Assembly (NCBI RefSeq): GCF_004010195.1
Contig: NC_057718.1
Coordinates: 8,706,859-8,726,858, forward strand
From: Chiloscyllium plagiosum
Lineage: Eukaryota
Reading direction: 5' to 3'
DNA length: 20,000 nt
Within the stretch, counting starts at the first letter, position 1; each line of letters starts with the position of its first letter. Shown piece by piece: positions 582 through 20,000 of the stretch. The position numbers and the translations under genes were made by a program. The notes beneath the pieces are model-generated. The model was not told the origin of the DNA. It saw only the letters and a program-made list of their open reading frames with translations, and did no database searches.

Positions 582-1171
582 GCTATTTCACCATTTTCAG
601 TCTCCATTCTGGGTTGCCAGTATCTGCTGCATTGTATTTACAAATTAGCTGAAGTTTTTGATTCCTTTCATAGGAAACCTCAATTACAAACAGCCAGGTG
701 TTTTCAGGCACAGAAGTGGCACTGTAATCACACTTTCTTTAAGAGTGTGAAGTTACCATACTTCAGTTGATTCGTTTCAGGAAAATTCAAATAATTAGAA
801 CCCAAAGAGTGTCAAATATGTCTAGAAATTTAATAGGTGCAATTATAAAAATTTTTCTTTCTCACTTCTCACCTGACTCTAGCATATTCCATCCTGTTAT
901 GCTGGTTTGCGTGTTCCTTTGTGCAGACTACTTTTAACGCTTAAGGTTTACCCTGTCTTAGCTGTTAAAGGCTTTTGGTGATGTGTATCTCCAGGCACGT
1001 ACATATGCACCCATCAATACTCATACACACCCATAAACACACTATCTGCAGTCCTCACTTTTGCCGAGTTGATTTTAACCTTACTGCGAATCCTCTTGCA
1101 AGGATGCCTACCTTGAAGAAGTTCTCCTCCTCTCTCCACAAGAATCTCAGTGAGTCTCTCTCTCTCTCACT

Positions 1172-1234
1172 NNNNNNNNNNNNNNNNNNNNNNNNNNNNN
1201 NNNNNNNNNNNNNNNNNNNNNNNNNNNNNNNNNN
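1172..1234. other. Assembly gap (63 N)
   Basis: N run between (TC)n and (CA)n tracts. Confidence 1.
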
Positions 1235-1941: not shown

Positions 1942-3356
1942 CTGTATTAAAGGGGCACACATAGGAGTCACGGAGGTTGTGGTTTTAAACTCTCCTCCAC
2001 ACAACATGGACATGTGCTCCAGGCTGACGCTGCACAGCAATGGTGAGGGATTGCTGCACTGTCAGAGATGCTGGTGAATATTCCCTGTTGTACTGGTTAA
2101 CAATGTGGCATCTTGCTGCGTGGAAACTGGCAGCCACGTTTCCCATGTGACCAAGCACACTTCCAACGTATCGAATTGTCAAGTGTTTTGGGAAGTCCGA
2201 GGGATGTAAAAAGTGGTATATAAATCCAGTACTTACTTTAGTAGCTGCCCAGTGACCAACTCAGTGTGGTTCAGTAATGGTGTCATTGTTAGCTCTATTG
2301 TACTGGAGGTGTTGATTGGACTGATTGAGTCAGCATACACTCCACATTTGGTTCCAAAACCCTCTCGTGTTCCCACTCAGACTTATCAAATAACATTTAT
2401 CTTCATTAAATGACATCTGTCACTTGATGGTACAAACTTCTATCCAATTTATTGTGGTTGTCTGCCAAGAAGCAGTGGGCTTCAAGCACAGTACATCAAT
2501 CACTGCCAGAGAAATGATGCCACAGCATGTAACTGAACAGAGAAATGAGCAGCAACTCCTGCTGATCTGGCTACAGCTTTATTCTCAAAAGTCAATACAC
2601 TTCCCTGGTTACGATGTACATTCTGTGCCCACGAGATTTCAACAGATCATTGAAAACTACCAACAGCTTTGTAGCACACTTTATAAACTGCGGCATGAAT
2701 AGGGAGGGCTTATTCAGTGCGACTAGTAAGTCAGGGTTTCACCTTGAGTCTCGTTCTTCACTCAGTCACCCCCTCTCTCGATCACGTTTTTCAAACATTT
2801 TAAAAACCTGGATTCACTCACCCCTCACCCTCCTGTTCTCCAGGAAATGCACGGCACTGTCATACAAACTGCTCTTCTTCTACAATTGGGTTGAATGGCA
2901 CTAGAACTGGCATGATGGGCTGAATGGTCTTTGGTCAGTCAGTTTCCCATTGGAAAGGTCTGGGGACGGGTAGGATTTCAAGCGAAGAATGAGGTGGAAG
3001 TTTCTATAGTGATTGGTGAAGGGGGAGTGTGGGTGTGGTGGCAATGTGTGAGCAGGAGTAAGGTGGGAACTTGGTGGAACACTCAAACCCCTTCCGTTCC
3101 TGCGTTAGAGAGTCAGAAACGGAGAATTATTTTAAAAGGCAACCTCAATGGGCATCCTCTGACCTTGGCTCCATGTTGTAGTACAAGGAGCTTGGATCTG
3201 ATAGGTTAATAGCTAATGAATGCATTAAGTTCCAACTATTATGACAAGGTCATAAGAATTTGGGGAGAAAGTGAGGGCTGCAGATGCTAGAGATTAGAGC
3301 TGAAAATGTGTTGCTGGAAAAGCGCAGCAGGTCAGGCAGCATCCAAGGAACAGGAG

Positions 3357-3392
3357 GATCGACGTTTCGGGCATAAGCCCTTCTTCAGGAAT
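3357..3392 (-). ncRNA. Minimal hammerhead ribozyme motif (intact core)
   Basis: Minus strand ATTC-CTGAAGA-A-GGGC-TTAT-GCCC-GAAA-CG-TC-GATC: CUGANGA, stem II, GAAA, UH. Confidence 0.8.
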
Positions 3393-3519
3393 GAGGAAAG
3401 TGTGTCCAGCAGGCTAAGATAAAAGGTAGGGAGGAGGGACTTGGGGGAGGGGCTTTGGAAATGCGATAGGTGGAGGGAGGTCAAGGTGAGGGTGATAGGC
3501 CGGAGTGGTGATAGGCCAC

Positions 3520-3738
3520 CTACTTGCGGAACATTTCAGAGAACACCTCTGGGTCACCCGGACCAACCAACCCAACCACCCCGTAGCTCAACACTTTAAA
3601 TCCCCCTCTCACTCCACCAAGGACATGCAGGTCCTTGGACTCCTCCATCGCCAGACCATGGCAACATGACGGTTGGAGGAAGAGCGCCTCATCTTCTGCC
3701 TGGGAACCCTCCAACCACAAGGGATGAACTCAGATTTC
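3520..3738 (+). pseudogene. C-terminal fragment of a PLE GIY-YIG endonuclease
   Basis: Translates LLAEHFREHL...NHPVAQHFKSPSH...T*RLGEERLIFCLGTLQPQGMNSDF; RxxEH, HF and GxN motifs; one internal stop. Confidence 0.85.
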
Positions 3739-3961
3739 TCCAGTTTCCTCATTTCCCCTCCCCCCACCTTGTCTCAGTCAAATACCTCGAACTCAGCACC
3801 GCCTTCCTAACCTGCAATCATCTTCCTGACCTCTCCGCCCCCACCCCACTCCGGCCTATCACCCTCACCTTGACCTCCCTCCACCTATCGCATTTCCAAA
3901 GCCCCTCCCCCAAGTCCCTCCTCCCTACCTTTTATCTTAGCCTGCTGGACACACTTTCCTC

Positions 3962-3997
3962 ATTCCTGAAGAAGGGCTTATGCCCGAAACATCAATT
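3962..3997 (+). ncRNA. Minimal hammerhead motif (CpG-decayed copy)
   Basis: CTGAAGAAGGGCTTATGCCCGAAACATC. Confidence 0.7.
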
Positions 3998-4149
3998 CTC
4001 CTGCTCCTTGGATGCTGCCTGACCTGCTGCGCTTTTCCAGCAACACATTTTCAGCTCATAAGAATTTGGCTCAGGAAAACAGCTCTCATGTCAAAGGAGA
4101 TAGACTAATGATCTTGGCCACCTCATAGACATATTTTCAAACAATATGC

Positions 4150-4226
4150 CACACCTTTGGAGCTGCTCGGAACCTGTGCCTCCTGGCCAAGAAGTAGAGA
4201 CACTACCATTGTGCCAAAACAGACCT
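4150..4226 (-). mobile_element. Degenerate tRNA-derived SINE head
   Basis: GAACC...CTGGC..AGAAGTAGAGACACTACC pattern, similar to 7590-7650. Confidence 0.4.
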
Positions 4227-4241
4227 TATCATTTAGCTTGT

Positions 4242-5103
4242 ACCATAAGACCATAAAACAGAGAAATTAGGCCATTCAGCCCATTGATTCCACTCCACCA
4301 TTCAATCATGGCTGATATGTTTCTGAACACTAGTCTTCCACTTTCTCCCCGTAACCTTTGATCCCCTTGACAATCGAGAACCTATCTATCTCTGTTTTAA
4401 ATATCCTCAGTGACTTGGCCTCCACAGCCTTCTGTGGCAGTGAACTCCACAGATTCACCCCTCTCTGGCTGAAGAGGTTTCGCCTTATCTCCGTTCCATA
4501 GGATCTTCCCTTTATTCTATTAATGTGCCCTCAGGTCCTTGTCTCTCCTGCCAATGGAAACATCTCCCCAACCTCCACTCTCTCCAGGCTGTTCGGTATT
4601 CAGTCAAGATTAGAGTGGTGCTGGAAAAGCACAGCAGATCAGGCAGTATCCGAGGAGCAGGAAAAATCGATGTTTCAGGCAAAAGCCCTTCATCAGGAAG
4701 AGCTGAATTCCTGATAAACAGCTTTTGCCCAAAACATCGATTTTACTGCTCCTCAGATGCTGTCTGACCTGCTGTGCTTTTCCAGCACCACTCTAATCTA
4801 GACTCTAATCTCCAGCATCTGCAGCAGGAAGAGCTGAATTCCTGATAAAGAGCTTTTGCCCAAAACGTCGATTTTACTGCTCCTCAGATGCTGCCTGACC
4901 TGCTGTGCTTTTCCAGCACCACTCTAATCTAGACTCTAATCTCCAGCATCTGCAGTACCCACTTCTGCCTGTTCAGTATTCAGTTAGTATCAATTAGATC
5001 CCCCCCCTCATCCTTCTAAGTTCCATCATATATAGTCCCAGAGTCCTCAAATATTCCTCAGGTGTTAAACCTTTCATTCTCGGGAACATTCTCATGAATC
5101 TCC
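4242..5103 (-). mobile_element. CR1 LINE 3' fragment interrupted by a PLE derivative
   Basis: Repeated CCATAA tail, CR1 3'UTR and ORF2 C-terminus on the minus strand; split by the 4605-4968 insertion. Confidence 0.85.
4605..4968 (+). mobile_element. Non-coding fold-back PLE derivative with an internal 131-bp tandem duplication
   Basis: Inverted arm 4605-4700; direct units 4694-4824 and 4825-4955; TSD CTGTTC(G/A)GTATTCAGT at 4589-4604 and 4969-4984; three hammerhead-like motifs. Confidence 0.9.
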
Positions 5104-5350
5104 CTTTCACCGTTGTGCAACAAATACCTGCTCATTTAAAATACAAGGCATTTCCCATTAAGACTCTCCAGTGATTTTCTTTTACCATCATCATCCAAAT
5201 AGGCCCTTCGGCCCACTTAGAGAAAGAGAATGGTGCCAGCATACACACCAATCATGAGCTAATAGCATTGGCATCACAACACAAGCATCAGGTACTGCAG
5301 CCAATGTATAGCAAACCAGGGTATGAATCCAGTGCTCCACCAAGGGGTAG

Positions 5351-5669
5351 TTTTTATTTACTCATGGGGCATGGATGGCAGTGGCTGGGACAGCATTTAT
5401 TCCCCATCTCTACTTACCCTGGAGAAAGTGGTGATGAACTGCCTTCCTGAAACACTACAGTCCATCTACTGTAGGTATATTCCACCACGCCAATAGGGAG
5501 TGAATTCCAGGGTTTTGACCCAGTGACAATGAAAGAACAGCGAATTATTTCCCAGTCAGGATGGTGAGTGTGTTGGAGAGGAACTTGCAGTTGGGGGTGT
5601 TCCCACATATCTGCTGACCTTGTTCTTCTAGATGGTAGTGGCCATGGGTTTGGAAGGTGCTGTCTGAAG
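5351..5669 (-). mobile_element. 3' end of an L2/CR1-group LINE
   Basis: Minus strand reads GSKPWNSLP...; tail AATAAATGCTGTCCCAGCC...CCCATGAGTAAATAAAAA. Confidence 0.75.
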
Positions 5670-5957
5670 ATCTAGCTTAGTTGCCTCTTTCTTTTGATCG
5701 TCTTACGTTTGCCTCCTGTTGTCCTGTAGTCTGAGCACCAGTGTTGGGCGTGATGCTGAATTCAGAATTGCCAATGGTACATTCTTGATTATTTCCACCT
5801 TTATTTCAGCTCTGAACTGTTACCATCCTGGGAAAAATACTCGAAGGTTAGTGAAAGGATGGAGGCTTTCTTCTAACACACTGGACCAAGCAGGTCCTTT
5901 AGATCCCAACCTCAAAGGAGGTTGGTGGCAATCAACCAGCTTTCTGGTAATCAGTTA

Positions 5958-6189
5958 GGAAAAAGTGTGGACTGCAGATGCTGGAGATCAGAGTCGCAAG
6001 CGTGGTGCTGGAAAAGCACAGCAGGTCAGGCAGCATCAGAGGAGCAGGAGAATCAACGTTTCAGGCAGGAGTCCTTCATCAGGAATAGAGGCCTCATTCG
6101 TGATGAAGGGCTTATACCCGAAACATTGATTTTCCTACTCCTCAAGTGCTGCCTGACCTGCTGTGCTTTTCCAGCAAGACGCTGTTGAC
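5958..6189. mobile_element. Non-coding fold-back PLE derivative
   Basis: Inverted arms around a ~10-bp spacer at ~6087-6095; hammerhead motifs on both strands; TSD TTCTGGTAATCA(G/A)TTA at 5942-5957 and 6190-6205. Confidence 0.9.
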
Positions 6190-6424
6190 TTCTGGTAATC
6201 AATTATTCAACCAGCCTATACAACATGGTGAGCAGTGTTAAGGGTTCACTAGATAATGCATGCCTCAGTCCCTGTCTTGACTTGAAAACCCTGCTGGTTG
6301 CCCCAGTCAAGAACTACAGAAAAACTAGAGTTAAATCATAAAATCTCCCCCAGTAGAGATTTTTGATTGAAGAAGCCAGCTAACAATCTCAGCTGCAGAA
6401 AGGAACAACGTAGGTGACAAGAGA

Positions 6425-6850
6425 ATCATCCAAATCATAGAGATGTACAGCACAGAAACAGACTCTTCAGTCCAACCTGTCCATGCCAACCAGATATCCT
6501 AAATTAACCTAGTCCCATTTGCCAGCATTTGGCCCATATCCCTCAAAATCCTTTCTATTCATGTACCTATCCAGATGCCTTTTAAATGTTGCAATTGTAC
6601 CAGCCTCCATCACTTCCTCTGGCAGCTCATTCCATACAGACACCACCTTCTATGTGAAAATGGTCTCTTTCGTATATTTCCACTCTCACTTTAAACCTAT
6701 GCCCTCAAGTTTTGGACTCCCCTCTACTGGGAAAAAAGCCTTTGGCTATTCATCATATCTATGATTTGAAAACTTCTATAAGGTCACCGCTCAGCCTCCA
6801 GCACTCCAGGGAATAGCCCCAGCCTATTCAGCCTCTCCCTACAGCTCAAA
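6425..6850 (-). mobile_element. HER1-type CR1 LINE 3' fragment
   Basis: Colinear with 19301-19674; CATAGAGATGTACAGCAC.GAAACAGA tail. Confidence 0.85.
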
Positions 6851-6922
6851 TGGTGGGACTCTGGTGTATTCCCACCCTTGCAACTGTTGATCCTCATTGA
6901 TAATGGAGGTAGTGGCAGGGTT

Positions 6923-7217
6923 TTAGATTAGATTCCCTACAGGGTGGAAACAGGCCCTTTGGCCCAACAAGTCCACACCGACCCGCTGAAGACTAACCCA
7001 TCCCCCTCTGACTAATGCACCTAACAGCTTTGGACAATTTAGCATGGCTAATTCACCTGACCTGCACGTCTTTGGACTGTGGGAGGAAACCGGAGCACCC
7101 AGAGGAAACCCACGCAGACACAGGGAGAATGTACAAACTCCACATAGACAGTCACCCGAGGCTGGAACTGAACCTGGCGCTGTGAAGCAGCAGTGCTAAC
7201 CACTGAGCCATCATACC
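6923..7217 (-). mobile_element. HE1-type V-SINE
   Basis: (AGATT)n tail, V-domain GGAAACCGGAGCACCCAGAGGAAACCCACGCAGACAC, tRNA-like head. Confidence 0.92.
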
Positions 7218-7277
7218 AAATGACCTCCTTGGAGTGCTATAGCGCTTCTTTGATTCCTTAATTATTAAATTTGAATT

Positions 7278-8010
7278 TTACATGGGATATGGGTATCTCT
7301 GGTAAGGCCAGCATTTGTTGTCCATCTCTAATTACCCATAAACTGAGTGCTTTGCTATGATCTTTTCAATGGGCAGTTAACAGCCAGACCCATTACTGTG
7401 GGCCTGGAGTCACACATAGGCCATGTTGGGTAGGGATGGGAGGTTTCCTTCTGAAGTGAACCAAATGGATGTCAAACTGCTATTCCTGAAATCAGCTTTA
7501 AATTCCAGATTATTTTGAATGCTACCAGCTGCCTTGTTCCAGTTTGATCCAGGCTCTCTAATCAGAGAGTCCATTGTACATCTCTAGCACAGGTGGGAAT
7601 TGAGCCTGGATCTCTTGGCTCAGAGATAGGGACACTACCTCAGTAGCCCCCACCCAGTGATTAGATTTCTTACGGTGTGGAATCAGGCCTTTTGGGCCAA
7701 CAAATCCACACTGACCCTTCGAAGACCCATTCCCCCCTGACTAATGCACCTCACACTATGGGCAGTTAGCATGGCCAATTCGCCTGGCCTGCACATCTTT
7801 AGATTATGGGAGGAAACCGGAGCACCCACGCAGACACGGGGAGAACGTGCAAACTCCACACAGAGACAGCCACCCGTGGCGGGAATTGAACCCGAGTCCC
7901 TGGCGCTGCGAGGCAGCAGTGCTAACCACTGAGCCTCTATGCTACCCTAGTGTTGCCTGGACATTTGCCTGGGTCTCTAGATTACCAGGCAAGTAAAATT
8001 ATCACACCAA
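7278..8010 (-). mobile_element. Old tRNA-derived SINE with a LINE-shared tail, split by younger SINEs
   Basis: Tail 7281-7337 resembles the LINE tail at 5362-5419; body to ~7560; probable head remnant at 7961-8010. Confidence 0.6.
7659..7947 (-). mobile_element. HE1-type V-SINE
   Basis: Same tail, V-domain and head as the other copies; 11-bp deletion in the V-domain. Confidence 0.92.
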
Positions 8011-8513
8011 GTCACTCTTAAGACATCTCAGTTAGATCATACCTCAAATGTCCGCGCTCAGGGAAAGCCCCATTACAGTAGGCCTTATGATTTAACTCTT
8101 CTAGTCCTCAGATCATTCTGGTTAATTTAAACTGCACCCCTTCCAATTCACATCTTTAGATTATGGGAGGAAACCTGAGCACCCGGAGGAAACCCACGCA
8201 GACACGGGGAGAACGTGCAAACTCCACACAGACAGTCACCCGAGGCGGGAATTGAACGCGAGTCCCTGGCGCTGTGAGGCAGCAGTGCTAACCACTGAGC
8301 CTCTATGCCACCCTAGTGTTGCCTGGACATTTGCCTGAGTCTTAGATTACCAGGCAAGTAACATTATGACACCAAGTCACCCTTAAGACATCTCAGTTAG
8401 ATCATACCTCAAATGTCCGCGCTCAGGGAAAGCCCCATTACAGTAGGCCTTATGATTTAACTCTTCTAGTCCTCAGATCATTCTGGTTAATTTAAACTGC
8501 ACCCCTTCCAATT
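7792..8513. repeat. ~360-bp tandem duplication (7792-8148, 8149-8513) including the HE1 5' half
   Basis: Two colinear units, each starting CACATCTTTAGATTATGGGAGG and ending CCCCTTCCAATT. Confidence 0.95.
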
Positions 8514-8904
8514 CCTGTTTGCCAATGGGTTAATGTATTAGTGACAGCAGCTGATAGACTGAGAGACCAAATTGACCTGATGATAATTAATATTCCATAG
8601 CTTGTTGGCACCAAAGCACTGGTGTCTGACTATCCTGTCATGTTCCACTGTAAATGATTAGAATTGCCTACACTCTCACTAAAATTAGCAAAGTTCTCTG
8701 GCTCTGCCCCAGAATTGAAAAAAGGAAACAACAGATGGCAACCGAACAAAATTAGTGGATGAATTCACTGATCCCACGCTCTCAGTGGGGAGTCACATTC
8801 AGAGTCAGCATGGGTTGGAAATTCACACAAGTTCCAAGGTGCCTGTAAACACAGTAGGGCCAGTTTGCTATTACTCAGTGTATCCACTGGAACGAACACA
8901 GGAA

Positions 8905-9920
8905 CAGAAGAGAAATACAGAACTCAAGAAACAAGGCCAGGAATAGTCTATTGAGTTTGCTGCAGAAGGCAATATGATCATAAGAACTTAACAACATTAG
9001 AAATAAGCGGTCATCTGGCCTGCTCCGCCATTCAATAAGATCATGGCCTATCTTTTTGTGGACTCAGGCGAAAGTGAGGACTGCAGATGCTGGAGATTAA
9101 AGTCGAGAGTGTGGTGCTGGAAAAGCACAACAGGTCAGGCTGCATCCGAGGGGCTGGACAATCGACCTTTCTGGCTAAAGCCCTTCACCAGGAAGGCTTT
9201 TGTGGACTCAGGTTTTTGGGGGCTCAGCTCCACTTCCCCACCTGCTCACCATAACCCTTAACTCATTTACTGTTCAAAAATCTATCTTTGCCTTAAAAAC
9301 ATTCAATGAGCTAGCCTCAACTGCTTCACTGGGCGGGGAATTCCACAGATTCACAACCTTTTGGAAGAAGGACTTCCTCCTCAACTCTGTCCTAAATCTC
9401 CTCCCCCTTATTTTGATGTTCTTCCCCCTTAGTTCTCGTTTCACCCACCAATGGGAACAACCTCTCTGCTTCTACCTTATCTATTCCATTCATACGTTTT
9501 ATATTTCCACAAGATTCCCCCTCATTCTTCTAAATTCCAATGTATAGTCCCAGTCTATTCAATGTCTCCTTATAAGGCAATGAGGCTTCCAGTACTTACC
9601 CTCTCAAGCCAACTCTCTACATCCCTTGATTATCTGAAGCCTTAGATTCAATGATGGAACTTTCACAACCCTCCAGGGTAGATATTTCCAATGATTCACC
9701 TTGCGCTGCGTGAAGAAATCTCTCCTCATCTCAATGCCAATCATCCCCTTATCCAGAAGCTGAGTCCCCGTATTTTAGATTTCCCAATCATTGGAGACAA
9801 TCACTCAGCGACCACATTATCAAGCACCCCAGGGCTCTGCATAATCCATTGACATCACCTCTCATTTTTCAAAACTCCAGAGAACATGAATCCCATTTCC
9901 TCAGCCTCTTATTGTGGAGC
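8905..9920 (-). mobile_element. Nested CR1 3' fragments (younger ~8979-9581 inside older ~8905-8978 + ~9582-9920)
   Basis: Two successive CR1 C-terminal/3'UTR patterns (TTCCA.AGATTCAC...GAAGAA). Confidence 0.7.
9069..9197 (-). mobile_element. Single-arm PLE terminal fragment with a decayed hammerhead
   Basis: AAAGTGAGGACTGCAGATGCTGGAG end; TSD TTTTGTGGACTCAGG at 9054-9068 and 9198-9212. Confidence 0.88.
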
Positions 9921-10648: not shown

Positions 10649-11809
10649 TCAGGACTCACCCATCAGTGGAAACATGCTTCCTGTCTCCAGAATGTCCAAT
10701 CCTTTAATAATCTTATACGTCTCAATCAGATCCCCTCTAAACTCAAGCGTATACAAGCCCAGTCGCTCCAATCCTTCAGCGTAAGATAGTCCCGCCATTC
10801 TGGGAATTGACCTCGTGAACCTACATTGCACTCCCTCAATAGCCAGAATGTCTTTCCTCAAATTTGGAGACCATAACTGTGCACAATATTCCAGGTGTGG
10901 TCTCACCAGGGCCCTGTACAGCTGCAGAAGGACCTCTTTGCTTCTATACTCAATTCCTCTTGTTATGAAGGCCAGCATGCTATTAGCTTTCTTCACTGCC
11001 TGCTGTACCTGCATGCTCGCTTTCATTGACTGATGTACAAGAGCACCTAGATCTCGTTGCACTGCCCCTTTACCTAACTTGACTCCATTTAGGCAGTAAT
11101 CTGCCTTCCTGTTCTTGCCACCAAAGTGGATAACCACACATTTATCCACATTAAACTGCATCTGCCATGCATCTATCCACTCACCTAGCCTGTCCAGGTC
11201 ACCCTGTATTCTCCTAACATCCTCCTCACATTTCACCCTGCCACCCAGCTTTGTGTCATCAGCAAATTTGCTAATATTACTTTTAATAAATTCATCTATA
11301 TCATTAATGTACATTGTAAAAAGCTGCGGTCCCAGCACTGATCCCTGCGGCACACTATTGGTCACCGCCTGCCATTCCGAAGGGAAGCCATTTGTCACTA
11401 CTCTTTGTTTCCTGTCAGCCAACCAATTTTCAATCCATGTCAGTATTTTGCCCCTAATACCATGTGCCCTAATTTTGCTCACTAACCTCCTGTGTGGGAC
11501 TTCATCAAAAGCTTTCTGAAAGTCCAGGTATACTACATCCACTGGATCTCCCCTGTCCATCTTCAGAGTTACATCCTCAAAAAATTCCAGAAGATTAGTC
11601 AAGCATGATTTCGCCTTCATAAATCCATGCTGTCCCTGACCTATCCTGTTACTGTTATCTAGATGTGTCATAATTTCATCCTTTATAATTGACTGCAGCA
11701 TTTTTCCCACCACTGAGGTCAGGCTAACCCGTCTATAATTCTCTGTTTTCTCTCTCCCTCCTTTCTTAAAAAGTGGGACAACATTAGCCACCCTGAATCT
11801 ATAGAACAT
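10649..11809 (-). pseudogene. CR1 reverse transcriptase domain (open 386-codon stretch of a broken ORF2)
   Basis: PLFKKG, YLDFQKAFD, VPQGSVLGP, KFADD, WQMQFNVDKC, LVRPHLEYC. Confidence 0.97.
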
Positions 11810-11987
11810 TGGAAAATGATCACGAATGCATCCACGATTTCTAGAGCACCTCCTTCAGTGCCCTGGGATGTAGACCATCAGGTCCCAGGGACTTATCAGC
11901 CTTCAGACCTAACAGTCTCTCCAACACCTGGCAAATATAAATTCCCTCAGTTCAGGTCCTTCAGCCACTATTACATCTGGGAGATTG

Positions 11988-12307
11988 ATTAGATTAGATT
12001 ACTTACAGTGTGGAAACAGGCCCTTCGGCCCAACAAGTCCACCCCGACCCTCCGAAGAGCAACCCACCCAGACTCATTCCCCTACATTTACCCCTTCATC
12101 TAACATTATGGGCAATTTAGCATGACCAATTCACCTAACATGCACATTTTTGGACTGTGGGAGGAAACCGGAGCACCCGGAGGAAACCCACGCAGACACG
12201 GAGAGAATGTGCAAACTCCACACAGACAGTTGCCTGAGGTGGGACTTGAACCTGGACCTCTGGCGCTGTGAGGCAGTAGTGCTAACCATTGTGCCACTGT
12301 GCCGCCC
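11988..12307 (-). mobile_element. Full-length HE1-type V-SINE inserted in CR1 ORF2
   Basis: GGGCGGCAC start, A box TGGCACAATGG, B box GGTTCAAGTCC, V-domain, (AATCT)n tail; ATTG at both flanks. Confidence 0.96.
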
Positions 12308-12901
12308 ATTGCTCGTGTCTTCCCCAGTGAAGACAGATCTAAAGTACCAATTCAACTCTTCTGCCATTTCTTTGTTCCCCATAATAAATTCACCCGTTTC
12401 TGTCTTCAAGGGCCCAATTTTAGTCTTAACCATTTATTTTCTTTTATATACCTAAAAAAGCCTTTACTATCCTCCTTTATATTTTTGGCCAGTTTACCTT
12501 CGTACCTCATTTTTTCTTTGCATATTTCCTTTTTAGTTATCCTCTTTTGTTCTTTAAAAGCTTCCCAGTCCTCCGTTTTCCCACTTATCTTTGCTATGTT
12601 ATACTTTTTCACTTTTGTCTTTATATGGTCCTTAACTTCCCTCATTCGCCACGGCCACCCCTGCCTCCTCTTAGGATCTTTCTTCCTTTTTGGAATGAAC
12701 TGCATTATACCCAGAAATACCTGCCATTGTTGTTCCACTGCCATCCCTGCTAGGGTATTGCACCATTGAACTTTGGCCAGCTCCTCCCTCATAGCTCCAT
12801 AGTTCCCTTTATTCAACTGAAATATTGTCACTTCCGATTCTACCCTATCCCTTTCAAACTGGAGATCATTATATTGTGGTCACTACCTCCTAATGACTCC
12901 T

Positions 12902-13347
12902 TTACTTCAAGATCCCTGATGTGTTGCACAACACCAGATCCAGAATTGCCTTCTCCCTGGTCGGCTCCAGCACCAGCTGTTCTAAGAATCCATCTCGGAG
13001 GCACTCCACAAACTCCCTTTCTTGGGGTCCAGTACCATCCTGATTCTCCCAGTCCACCTGCATGTTGAAATCCCCCATAACAACTGTAGTAATATCTTTG
13101 CGACAGGCCAATTTCAGCTCCTTATTCAACTTACACACTACATCCAGGCTACTGTTTGGGGATCTGTAGATAACTCCCATTCGGGTCTTTCTACCCTTAG
13201 AATTTCTCAGTTCTATCCATACTGACTCTACATCCCCTGATTCTAGGTCTCCCTGTGCAGGGGACTGAATATCATTCCTTACCAACAGGACCACCCCACC
13301 CCCTCTGCCAGTCAGTCTGTCCTTACGATAGCACGTATAGCCTTGAA
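12902..13347 (-). pseudogene. CR1 APE-like endonuclease domain fragment
   Basis: ESVWIELRN, GVIYRSPNS, VVMGDFN, FLEQLVLEPTREKAILDLVL. Confidence 0.93.
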
Positions 13348-13495
13348 GTTATGTCCTTTTTAAAAATAACATGAACAAAATAGTCCACAGCACTCCAGCT
13401 GTGGTTTTGCCAATGCCCCTCACAACCAGAGTAAATCATGTCTACTTTTAAATTTAATTTTCCTTGCAATGTACATCAAAATTCCGTTGTTGATA
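13348..13495 (-). mobile_element. Ancient CR1 fragment (upstream half of 10120-10335)
   Basis: Minus strand IARKIKFKSRHDLLWL*GALAKPQLECC...KKDI, resembling IARGIEYKS.EVLL.LYRALVRP.LEYC...RKDI. Confidence 0.7.
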
Positions 13496-16560: not shown

Positions 16561-16899
16561 CATTTTAAATGATTGAAATGTAAGATGTGAGGAAGAATTT
16601 GGCCAAGAAACTCTAAGTAAAATATTTAGTTCACTCATAAAAAAACCTCATGTACCATTGATGGCATTTAGTGCCATTGGCAGGGCAGAAAGTGAGGGCT
16701 AAATATGCATTCTACAGTCCTTGGCATCTCCCATTCTATACCTGGTAGGACTATTGAAGTAACCGGAATCTGGCAGCCATGTGTTATGCTGCCCAACCCA
16801 CATTCTGAATTAGGATATCTGTTTCTAAGATCAGGAATAGAGATCTTATTGCATTGCTGGAATTGATAACAAAGTGATTAAAATTTATATAAAAGATCT

Positions 16900-19060: not shown

Positions 19061-19100
19061 TCATGCCATGGAGGTACTGATGCTGGACCAGGGTCGACAT

Positions 19101-19243
19101 AGTCAGAAGTCACACGACTCCAGGTTATAGTTCAACAGGTTTATTTGAAATCACAAACTTTCGGAGCGCTGCTCCTTCATCAGATGAAGCCTTCCGAAAG
19201 CTCGTGATTTCAAATAAACCTCTTGAACTATAAGCTGGTGTCA
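19101..19243. mobile_element. Fold-back derivative of a second PLE family, with hammerhead
   Basis: Inverted arms ~19119-19164/~19193-19240; minus strand CTGATGA-AGGAGC-AGC-GCTCC-GAAA at 19155-19183; flanking repeat CATAGTCA at 19098-19105 and 19242-19249. Confidence 0.85.
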
Positions 19244-19300
19244 TAGTCAACCCTTTATCCAAAATCCCAAAATCTGAAAAGCTCTGAAACCCAAAGGTTT
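19244..19300. mobile_element. Tigger/pogo-like DNA transposon end
   Basis: AGTCAACCCTTTATCCAAAATCCCAAAATCTGAAAAGCTCTGAAA, a CpG-decayed (TCCGAAA)n subterminal pattern. Confidence 0.45.
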
Positions 19301-19674: not shown

Positions 19675-19761
19675 CAGAGGAACCTTGATTATCCAGCATT
19701 CAATTATCCGAATATTGAATTTCCCAGCAAGGTCACATGGTCCCGATGCTCAGCTAGACTA
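19673..19761. mobile_element. Tigger/pogo-like MITE left end
   Basis: TA+CAGAGGAACCTTGATTATCC TIR-like start with repeated ATTATCC. Confidence 0.55.
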
Positions 19762-20000
19762 TTGTTGTGGTTCTGTTCGCCGAGCTGGAAATTTCTGTTG
19801 TAAACGTTTCGTCCCCTGTCTAGGTGACATCCTCAGTGCTTGGGAGCCTCCTGTGAAGCGCTTCTGTGGTGTTTCCTCCGGCATTTATAGTGGCCTGTCC
19901 CTGCCGCTTCCGGTTGTCAGTTTCAGCTGTCCGCTGTAGTGGCCGGTATATTGGGTCCAGGTCGATGTGTTTGTTGATAGAGTTTGTGGATGAGTGCCAT
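19762..20000 (-). mobile_element. 3' end of a third (Poseidon-type) PLE, running off the window
   Basis: Minus strand WHSSTNSINKHIDLDPIYRPL (GIY-YIG C-terminal N motif), followed by a hammerhead. Confidence 0.8.
19800..19839 (-). ncRNA. Minimal hammerhead ribozyme motif (intact core)
   Basis: GCA-CTGAGGA-T-GTCACCT-AGAC-AGGGGAC-GAAA-CG-TT-TAC. Confidence 0.78.

Follow-up and report, generated by a model that had tools for sequence, protein, structure and literature searches.

As we examined a 20,000-nucleotide stretch of the Chiloscyllium plagiosum genome (the window), we identified four insertions (E1 to E4) that, judged by their sequence, are the 3' ends of an endonuclease-bearing (EN+) Penelope-like element (PLE), probably of the Neptune type. 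The copies themselves are inert, decayed insertions of a known kind of element. Our favoured explanation, which we consider fairly probable, is that they are dead 3'-end modules, each built at its own site by priming from both target strands followed by run-off of the cDNAs.

A sequence-only reading had placed the insertions at 3264-4057, 4605-4968, 5958-6189 and 9069-9197, and these coordinates and the target-site duplications (TSDs) held when re-measured, with TSDs of 14, 16, 16 and 15 bp in E1, E2, E3 and E4 (Table 1). The same was true of the end sequence common to all four insertions, the inverted structure of E1, E2 and E3, and the lack of coding sequence in E2, E3 and E4. As a control, 300 pairs of 55-nt windows were drawn at random, and none contained a match of at least 14 nt with at most one mismatch. 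The uniform TSD length concerns four copies, all from the window, and on these four their geometry supports the proposed staggered cut of ~15 nt. A public run of organism A contains the left junction of E1 without a single difference, so this junction is no assembly artefact, and a public contig of organism B aligned to exactly 3263, the end of the left TSD, with other letters thereafter.

Table 1. Parts of the four insertions and their flanking duplications, in window coordinates
Feature	Position	Strand	Remarks
E1 left TSD	3250..3263		14 bp, exact match to right copy; 12-14 allowing overlap
E1 tail, left arm only	3264..3296	-	33 nt
E1 left arm, PLE 3' end module	3297..3508	-	98% complementary to right arm; 4 differences in 212
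Most intact minimal hammerhead (E1 left)	3359..3392	-	C3 at 3388, bulged A, 4-bp stem II, GAAA-CG-UC; predicted cut 3361/3360
E1 junction	3508..3517	+	10-nt copy of 3492-3501
GIY-YIG endonuclease ORF, C-terminal remnant	3513..3810	+	one in-frame stop at 3667-3669; 61/70 identical to P0002
E1 right arm, tail-less, with hammerhead	3846..4057	+	C3 at 3966, CpG-decayed
E1 right TSD	4056..4069		14 bp, exact; 2-nt overlap with E1 arm end
E2 left TSD	4589..4604		16 bp, 1 mismatch to right copy
E2 tail-less arm	4605..4699	-	end 3 nt 5' of hammerhead C3 (4696)
E2 spacer	4700..4706		7 nt
E2 tailed arm	4707..4968	+	start 4 nt 5' of C3 (4711); core boxes broken
E2 right TSD	4969..4984		16 bp, 1 mismatch to left copy
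E3 left TSD	5942..5957		16 bp, 1 mismatch to right copy
E3 tailed arm	5958..6091	-	end 4-9 nt 5' of C3 (6082)
E3 tail-less arm	6092..6189	+	start 8 nt 5' of C3 position (6100)
E3 right TSD	6190..6205		16 bp, 1 mismatch to left copy
E4 left TSD	9054..9068		15 bp, exact match to right copy
E4 single tailed arm	9069..9197	-	matches to 3 nt 5' of C3 (9191), then 3 extra nt; core A6 changed
E4 right TSD	9198..9212		15 bp, exact match to left copy

The PLE origin, also proposed earlier, is supported by an endonuclease C terminus in E1, where the ORF remnant is 87% identical to a Chiloscyllium RT plus GIY-YIG protein (P0002). Public contigs with a loose end at 3513, the E1 junction, continue this ORF upstream into a LYIG motif. 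EN+ PLEs are defined by one ORF that joins a telomerase-like RT to a GIY-YIG endonuclease at its C terminus. The E1 fragment alone matched no Pfam family, and the window copies contain no RT; in the relatives P0002 and P0003, GIY-YIG was matched with E values of 0.0046 and 0.00025, hits that fall below Pfam's cut-off, and in P0003 it follows RVT_1 (E 0.0077, again below the cut-off). The CCHH motif, whose two cysteines lie between GIY and YIG, could be read in P0002 and P0003, and its two histidines are present in the window remnant. The relatives, and not the window, also show a linker motif, CX4CxxC in P0003 and partial in P0002. A CX2-5CxxC linker between RT and EN is a Neptune trait common to Nematis, and its presence in P0003 thus points to a family of Neptune/Nematis type rather than Poseidon. 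Other EN+ PLE traits found were the inverted pLTR structure in which one side alone bears a tail of 30-40 bp (all three hairpins) and a hammerhead in the pLTR. A 42-aa frame behind the tail at 1044-1169, a candidate for the 5' part of the ORF, gave no matches in a protein search.

The three hairpins carry the tail on one arm only (33, 34 and 34 nt), and the extension is likewise one-sided in a hairpin of a second family in the window (19106-19242). This asymmetry was absent from the sequence-only reading, as was a 131-bp tandem duplication in E2 (4688-4818 and 4819-4949, five differences). The hairpin centres all differ: E1 has 337 nt of unique ORF sequence collinear with its tail-less arm, E2 a 7-nt spacer and E3 a near-zero, palindromic centre at about 6087-6096. 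As the E1 ORF resumes at 3513, the junction consists of ~4 nt of locally templated insert and 5 nt of microhomology. Subfamily markers are common to both arms within E1, and likewise within E2, and differ between copies. The 98% likeness of the E1 arms fits a younger age for this copy. Selection or gene conversion preserving the hairpins was ruled out for E2 and E3, whose own arms (83-88% alike) are no closer than arms from different insertions (76-88%).

The insertions had further been described as each including a CUGANGA/GAAA motif. Defining the minimal hammerhead by a CUGANGA core, bulge, stem II and GAAA-NN-UH (after Cervera and de la Pena 2014, PMC4209133, available text), we found the motif in all eight arms, but the E4 core reads CUGGUGA and several arms are damaged. 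The E1 left arm, with an exact core, supports the assignment to the known PLE type and alone combines an intact core with the CG palindrome and stem II, the other seven being decayed. The core boxes are kept in E1-right, E2-left and E3-left, which are damaged elsewhere, and core changes affect four arms, both right-hand arms of E2 being broken and C3 changed in the E3 right arm. As in the minimal hammerheads of metazoan PLEs (PMC4209133, available text), there is a bulged nucleotide before stem II, a G10.1-C11.1 pair, a palindromic 15.2-16.2 and no stem III, while stem II has 4 bp in comparison with 7-8 in Schistosoma; stem I is weak here, with three standard pairs and a U-U. The metazoan motifs are mostly solo, with some opposite-strand pairs 100-700 bp apart, and the available text does not name sharks among their hosts. 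Rfam returned ten matches at E ≤ 1, none of them a hammerhead and all far below gathering, and six motifs folded as monomers showed no advantage over shuffled sequences (z -0.75 to 1.44). In the minimum free energy dimer, pairing was via the overlapping UCGA palindrome and not in the catalytic register. Of the stem cells across the eight arms, 82% were paired, with no compensatory changes in the seven pairs, and none of the eight arms begins or ends at the predicted cut.

These observations bear on the non-autonomous mini-element offered by the sequence-only reading. In the form considered here, a hairpin unit would be propagated whole, possibly as a retrozyme-like RNA via a ribozyme-cut circle. 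The hairpins are compact and TSD-flanked, and public contigs contain joints from 3391/3392 to 3358-3361, beside the predicted cut (6 of the 12 joints listed, with 206 more joints outside the listing). Against it, identical spacers were looked for among the window copies, and three different centres and the one-armed E4 were found instead, with no shared unit structure; the subfamily markers differ, the units end where the RT starts, ~100-130 nt 3' of the motif, rather than at the cut, and the cores show the decay and lack of compensation described above. The window thus offers no support for such an element, and we regard it as very improbable. Known retrozymes (PMC4918200, available text) are likewise short, non-coding, hammerhead-bearing and TSD-flanked, but our copies lack tandem direct repeats bounded by cut sites and their sequence is a coding PLE end. 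The rare joints might be traces, left in the genome, of the ribozyme cutting the template in vivo; in the study of the Anolis carolinensis Poseidon element PAc, template cleavage was not detected in RNA-seq (Frangieh et al. 2024, PMC11167929, available text).

The earlier observation that the arms stop just past the hammerhead could be made more precise. Each of the five short arms terminates 3-9 nt 5' of C3, that is, 3-9 nt beyond the 5' edge of the motif and ~30 nt away from where the ribozyme is predicted to cut. Under a crude model of exponential truncation, the probability that an end falls within a 10-nt window is 0.016-0.032 for each end. In all three public runs aligned, position 3392 (4 nt 5' of C3) was among the six best-supported loose ends (best 18 of 1,939 entries), found in 293 of 11,353, 337 of 13,417 and 88 of 2,233 partly aligned contigs (about 3%). 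The sequences beyond the loose end agreed at 0.31-0.34 at 3392; at 3513 and 3779, beyond which the contigs have a single continuation in common, the agreement was 0.70-0.84. As the reference represents one subfamily, divergence upstream of the hammerhead may add to the 3392 peak. The contig data tabulated no positions where many molecules begin or end. A 3'-splice-site-like stretch seen by eye in E1, ~22-26 nt before C3, was discounted as an explanation, since the ends themselves lie at 3-9 nt. Against an RNA start at the hammerhead edge, transcription of D. virilis Penelope starts elsewhere, 46 nt ahead of an intron of 75 bp; the end of that intron abuts the hammerhead (PMC4209133, available text).

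A fixed 5' end is also what a non-autonomous stub family would give. Its unit would be a ~130-nt single arm from hammerhead to tail that has its own transcription start at the front edge and, in the manner of a SINE, depends on mobilisation in trans; copies would inherit the 5' end from stub masters, with the mirror arm still added at insertion. Penelope has an internal promoter, Chlamydomonas has non-autonomous PLE derivatives (PMC8557442, available text), and the summed depth (X1), which is not copy number, is 15.1M over the stub and 3.3M upstream. However, a 3-nt insertion separates E2 from both E3 and E4, and the 76-88% likeness between insertions comes with no private shared stub marker among the window copies. 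The second, unrelated family is broken at its own hammerhead too (19183), as if the break were due to the mechanism and not to one particular master. We therefore hold the stub family to be unlikely. If a promoter were retained in the stub, this explanation and the favoured one would overlap.

The two-strand priming that we favour, with run-off at the RNA 5' end, was not among the two options of the sequence-only reading. As judged from the TSD geometry of the four copies, the GIY-YIG endonuclease would nick both target strands ~14-16 nt apart, leaving two 3' overhangs. Each 3' end would pair with the element RNA over 0-3 nt and prime cDNA, a distal internal start site being used by one and a proximal one, 33-34 nt away, by the other, giving the two outward-facing arms observed, one tailed and one tail-less. 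With start sites near the RNA 5' end, the cDNAs would run off uncleaved RNA to give arms of 95-135 nt; the arm ends suggest a template that began a few nucleotides before the hammerhead, with a longer one used for E1. The cDNA ends would then be joined via microhomology or short inserts, as the observed junctions suggest, priming from one strand only would leave a single arm (E4), and the copies would subsequently decay neutrally. The unique centres and the templated insert in E1 support assembly at each site.

Two start sites and two-strand extension are known in vitro from Poseidon PAc and are carried over here to a presumed Neptune-type element. In the available text of PMC11167929, the tail is the stretch between two internal RT start sites, as it appears to be here, both strands are cut and extended, truncation of the RNA 5' end shortens the product, and the template is uncleaved and contains the ribozyme. 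The start sites lie ~100-135 nt 3' of the hammerhead in our copies, and the main PAc site lies 111-118 nt into an ORF beginning in the motif; hairpin stubs and TSD length are not described for PAc in the main text available.

The other option, RT halting at the ribozyme with the cDNA folding back and copying itself before the endonuclease trims at the tail boundary, agrees with the palindromic or short-loop centres of E2 and E3 and with both arms coming from one subfamily, and self-priming and endonuclease resolution have been published as suggestions (PMC8557442, PMC3846280, available text), palindromic inverted junctions being ascribed to self-priming by Arkhipova et al. 2013 (PMC3846280, available text). 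The stalling part is unsupported: an RT moving 3' to 5' should stop at the 3' side of the structure, whereas the arms hold the entire motif and reach its far (5') edge before ending, and the monomer folding result above speaks against a block. E4 has the same stop with no fold-back. As the unique 337 nt of E1 are collinear with the tail-less arm, a single folded-back cDNA cannot supply the E1 tail without the further assumption that the centre was later deleted on one side; snap-back fails as the sole route for E1 and could still have formed E2 and E3. Overall, we consider stalling with snap-back improbable.

A more specific form of two-strand priming, which we put forward as a doubtful but conceivable reading, is a fixed geometry in which one protein dimer nicks the target at sites ~15 bp apart and primes both ends on the same uncleaved RNA, the joints being cleavage footprints. 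The distal cDNA would displace the proximal one, and both would run off where the transcript begins, at the hammerhead front edge, so that the hairpin would be a "double strong-stop" product and the stubs a fossil record of the integration step. If true, this would account for a tail on exactly one arm in all three hairpins and the second-family hairpin, and for one subfamily being common to both arms.

In L1 twin priming, both nicked strands prime cDNA, giving outward-facing 3' ends and microhomology at the junction, as here. The two L1 pieces are different parts of one RNA, whereas here both arms copy the same sequence and are offset only by the tail.

The insertion architecture is already published. 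EN+ PLE units in the available text of Craig et al. 2021 (PMC8557442) and Arkhipova et al. 2013 (PMC3846280) share with ours head-to-head inverted 3' ends, TSDs, strong 5' truncation, an end-module hammerhead, palindromic inverted junctions and a 30-40-bp tail on the inverted 5'-truncated copy (31 bp in Pen2a_Av, 33-34 nt here). They differ in TSD length, 14-16 bp here and 8, 9 and 10 bp in A. vaga PLEs, and neither available text was found to describe what we see in the window, namely three of four copies reduced to the end module and 5' ends fixed at the hammerhead front edge. How PLEs form tandem and inverted insertions is termed undefined in PMC8557442 (available text). Our literature search, with most subscription papers outside its scope, found no description of shark PLE stubs, hammerhead-edge 5' ends or PLE twin priming. 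Pattern scans for further copies gave no matches in genome contigs, viral contigs or a first metagenome scan; two matches in a second metagenome scan were rejected as chance matches with no element context.

Since the copies are inert and their architecture published, these four loci are of modest mechanistic interest, and the value lies in a tally. The detail worth testing is that the short copies all stop just before the hammerhead, which may be where the copied RNA started. With its very large number of short copies, a shark genome is a large natural data set on PLE insertion, in which a tally of 5' ends, tail asymmetry, spacer and TSD length could separate twin priming from snap-back and show how far apart the GIY-YIG enzyme places its nicks.

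The four insertions located by the sequence-only reading (E1–E4) were confirmed at their positions, and the best flanking-duplication search bore out its lengths for the target-site duplications (TSDs), 14–16 bp in all four, with limits uncertain by 0–3 nt owing to letters common to target and element ends (2 nt at the right of E1, 3 nt at the left of E2). As a control, a match of at least 14 nt with at most one mismatch was found in none of 300 random window pairs. A 2,033-nt public contig from a second organism matches to exactly 3263 and then diverges, consistent with an empty E1 site. The TSDs are longer than the 8–10 bp given for rotifer Penelope-like elements (PLEs) in passages of PMC3846280, and parts of PMC8557442 describe PLE TSD length as variable; a second PLE family in the window has a TSD of ~8 bp, compared with the 14–16 bp of E1–E4. 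The uniformity is an observation on four copies in the window: pattern scans of genome contigs, viral contigs and metagenomes gave no true further copy, and BLAST of E1–E4 against the window gave no additional complete copy, its further matches being short stretches of tail at 1044–1065 and 16687–16708. The open frame behind the first of these is possibly element body downstream of the reverse transcriptase (RT) start sites; a protein search with it gave no match.

Features of the window and their coordinates
Feature	Position	Strand	TSD	Description
Tail sequence	1044–1170	+		18/18 to E4; runs into open frame as far as N gap
Assembly gap	1172–1234			N run separating (CT)n end from long CA-rich tract
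E1	3264–4057		14 bp, exact	Hairpin
E1 middle	3513–3810	+		Open reading frame
E2	4605–4968		16 bp, 1 mismatch	Hairpin
E3	5958–6189		16 bp, 1 mismatch	Hairpin
Tandem duplication	7780–8514			~365 bp; SINE-like repeat and flank, flank copies 98% alike
E4	9069–9197		15 bp, exact	Single arm
Broken LINE	10649–13348	-		Frames for RT (401 aa) and an endonuclease-like protein; resembles CR1/L2 by eye
SINE-like repeat	~11987–12307			Splits the LINE
Tail-end match	16683–16708			Weak (19/22, E 0.16); possibly chance
Second-PLE-family hairpin	19098–19249		8 bp, 19098–19105 / 19242–19249, limits ambiguous	Intact-looking minimal hammerhead on the minus strand with C3 at 19183; hairpin turns within the core; left-arm-only extension
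Apparent third PLE family, 3′ end	19755–20000	-		Open frame like endonuclease C-terminus (judged by eye), then minimal hammerhead at 19836 with longer stem II; continues beyond the window

On translation, the middle of E1 gives the terminal part of an endonuclease, interrupted by a single in-frame stop. Among 72 candidate longer proteins, two matched this frame, both from Chiloscyllium punctatum (87% and 62% identity). Both relatives have GIY-YIG and one (P0003) also RVT_1, with weak scores below the Pfam cut-offs; a CCHH motif is present in both (P0002 and P0003) and a CX4CxxC linker in P0003. Linkers of this type are described in parts of PMC8557442 as a mark of Neptune and Nematis PLEs, and judging from these sequence marks the element is likely a Neptune PLE. 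The proposal that it carries a minimal hammerhead held: the motif fits the type defined in the relevant passages of PMC4209133 (core, bulged A, 4-bp stem II, GAAA-CG-UC) and is by type a putative minimal hammerhead. All eight arms, the copies of the 3′ end module, can be aligned across ~90 nt, and the motif is intact in the left arm of E1 only, the core boxes being broken in E4 and both E2 right arms. Across the arms, 82% of the cells for the named stem pairs remain paired and compensatory changes are absent, as expected for decaying copies. Monomer folds of the motif were no better than shuffles, predicted dimer pairs fell outside the catalytic register, and an Rfam search of the window gave no hammerhead match.

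In all three hairpins the element 3′ ends point outward, and the last 33, 34 and 34 nt (the tail) of E1, E2 and E3, respectively, are found on one arm only. This matches the PLE pattern of an adjacent inverted 5′-truncated copy with a one-sided 30–40-bp tail, as set out in parts of PMC8557442 and PMC3846280. E2 contains a 131-bp tandem duplication that probably arose after insertion, and the E1 junction, where the open frame picks up at 3513 behind a 10-nt local repeat (3492–3501 equals 3508–3517), looks like end-joining. For anole Poseidon, sections of PMC11167929 report that the tail is the stretch separating two internal RT start sites, that cutting and extension by the protein take place on both strands, that a shorter RNA 5′ end gives a shorter product and that ribozyme cleavage is not required.

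The short arms end 3–9 nt 5′ of C3, a core hammerhead position, in five of five cases; with the opposite arm or the TSD lying no more than 7 nt beyond each of them, they are true ends. The five ends come from three of the four insertions, the arms of E1 continuing for at least 120 nt. A crude exponential model gave 0.016–0.032 per end for a 10-nt window, which was picked post hoc and with the arms of one insertion not independent. The hairpin of the second PLE family (19106–19242) also turns inside its own hammerhead.

By the geometry of target-primed reverse transcription, a TSD with outward-facing 3′ ends would imply two TSD-long 3′ overhangs, each able to prime. If the two strands were primed at different start sites, one distal and one proximal, the one-tailed asymmetry would result, and the cDNAs would run off the RNA 5′ end directly in front of the motif. 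Twin priming of L1 is a parallel process. On the sequence evidence, such run-off fits best, and its main rival is a stub master, a short end-module copy whose transcription from its own front edge would yield the same ends. A point against run-off is that, in passages of PMC2377424, the start site of D. virilis Penelope lies farther upstream than the RNA 5′ end proposed for the E1–E4 family. The earlier suggestion that RT halts at the ribozyme and the cDNA folds back was not supported as regards stalling, which predicts ends on the 3′ side of the motif, where the window has none. As for the fold-back, the 337 nt unique to E1 come after the tail-less arm; one cDNA folded back on itself would then lack a template for the tail, and snap-back would require an extra later deletion. 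A propagating hairpin, the mini-element suggested as the alternative to stalling, is unlikely because the centres of all three hairpins differ. Ribozyme cleavage as the source of the ends is not supported in the window: it would place them at the cut, where none lie.

Public data were aligned to 3000–3845 for 4 of 24 listed runs; three contig sets (103,890, 173,737 and 18,003 contigs) matched, and a raw RNA run gave 0 reads. In each of the three matching runs, position 3392 (4 nt 5′ of C3) ranked in the top six loose-end positions, with 293, 337 and 88 contigs, the counts of two runs being lower bounds; the ranking covers the 18 best-supported of 1,939 rows over all three runs. The sequence behind it is near-random, with agreement of 0.31–0.34 versus 0.70–0.84 at 3513 and 3779. 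Counting against this peak, its contigs are ~3% of those partly aligned (11,353, 13,417 and 2,233), the reference is a single subfamily, and the tabulation of positions where many molecules begin or end had no entries. Among the 12 listed joints with letters between, a further 206 rows lying outside the listing, 7 begin at 3391/3392, the front edge of the motif, and 6 reach 3358–3361, adjoining the predicted cut 3361|3360; in several contigs with this join the letters between number 1–13. The joints are listed without orientation and are only a lead.

E1–E4 are real and well explained 3′-end insertions of an already known kind of PLE. A fixed 5′ end, a one-tail rule and a long TSD for PLEs were not found in the literature searched, a scope that left out most subscription papers. 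The three features provide testable clues to PLE integration.
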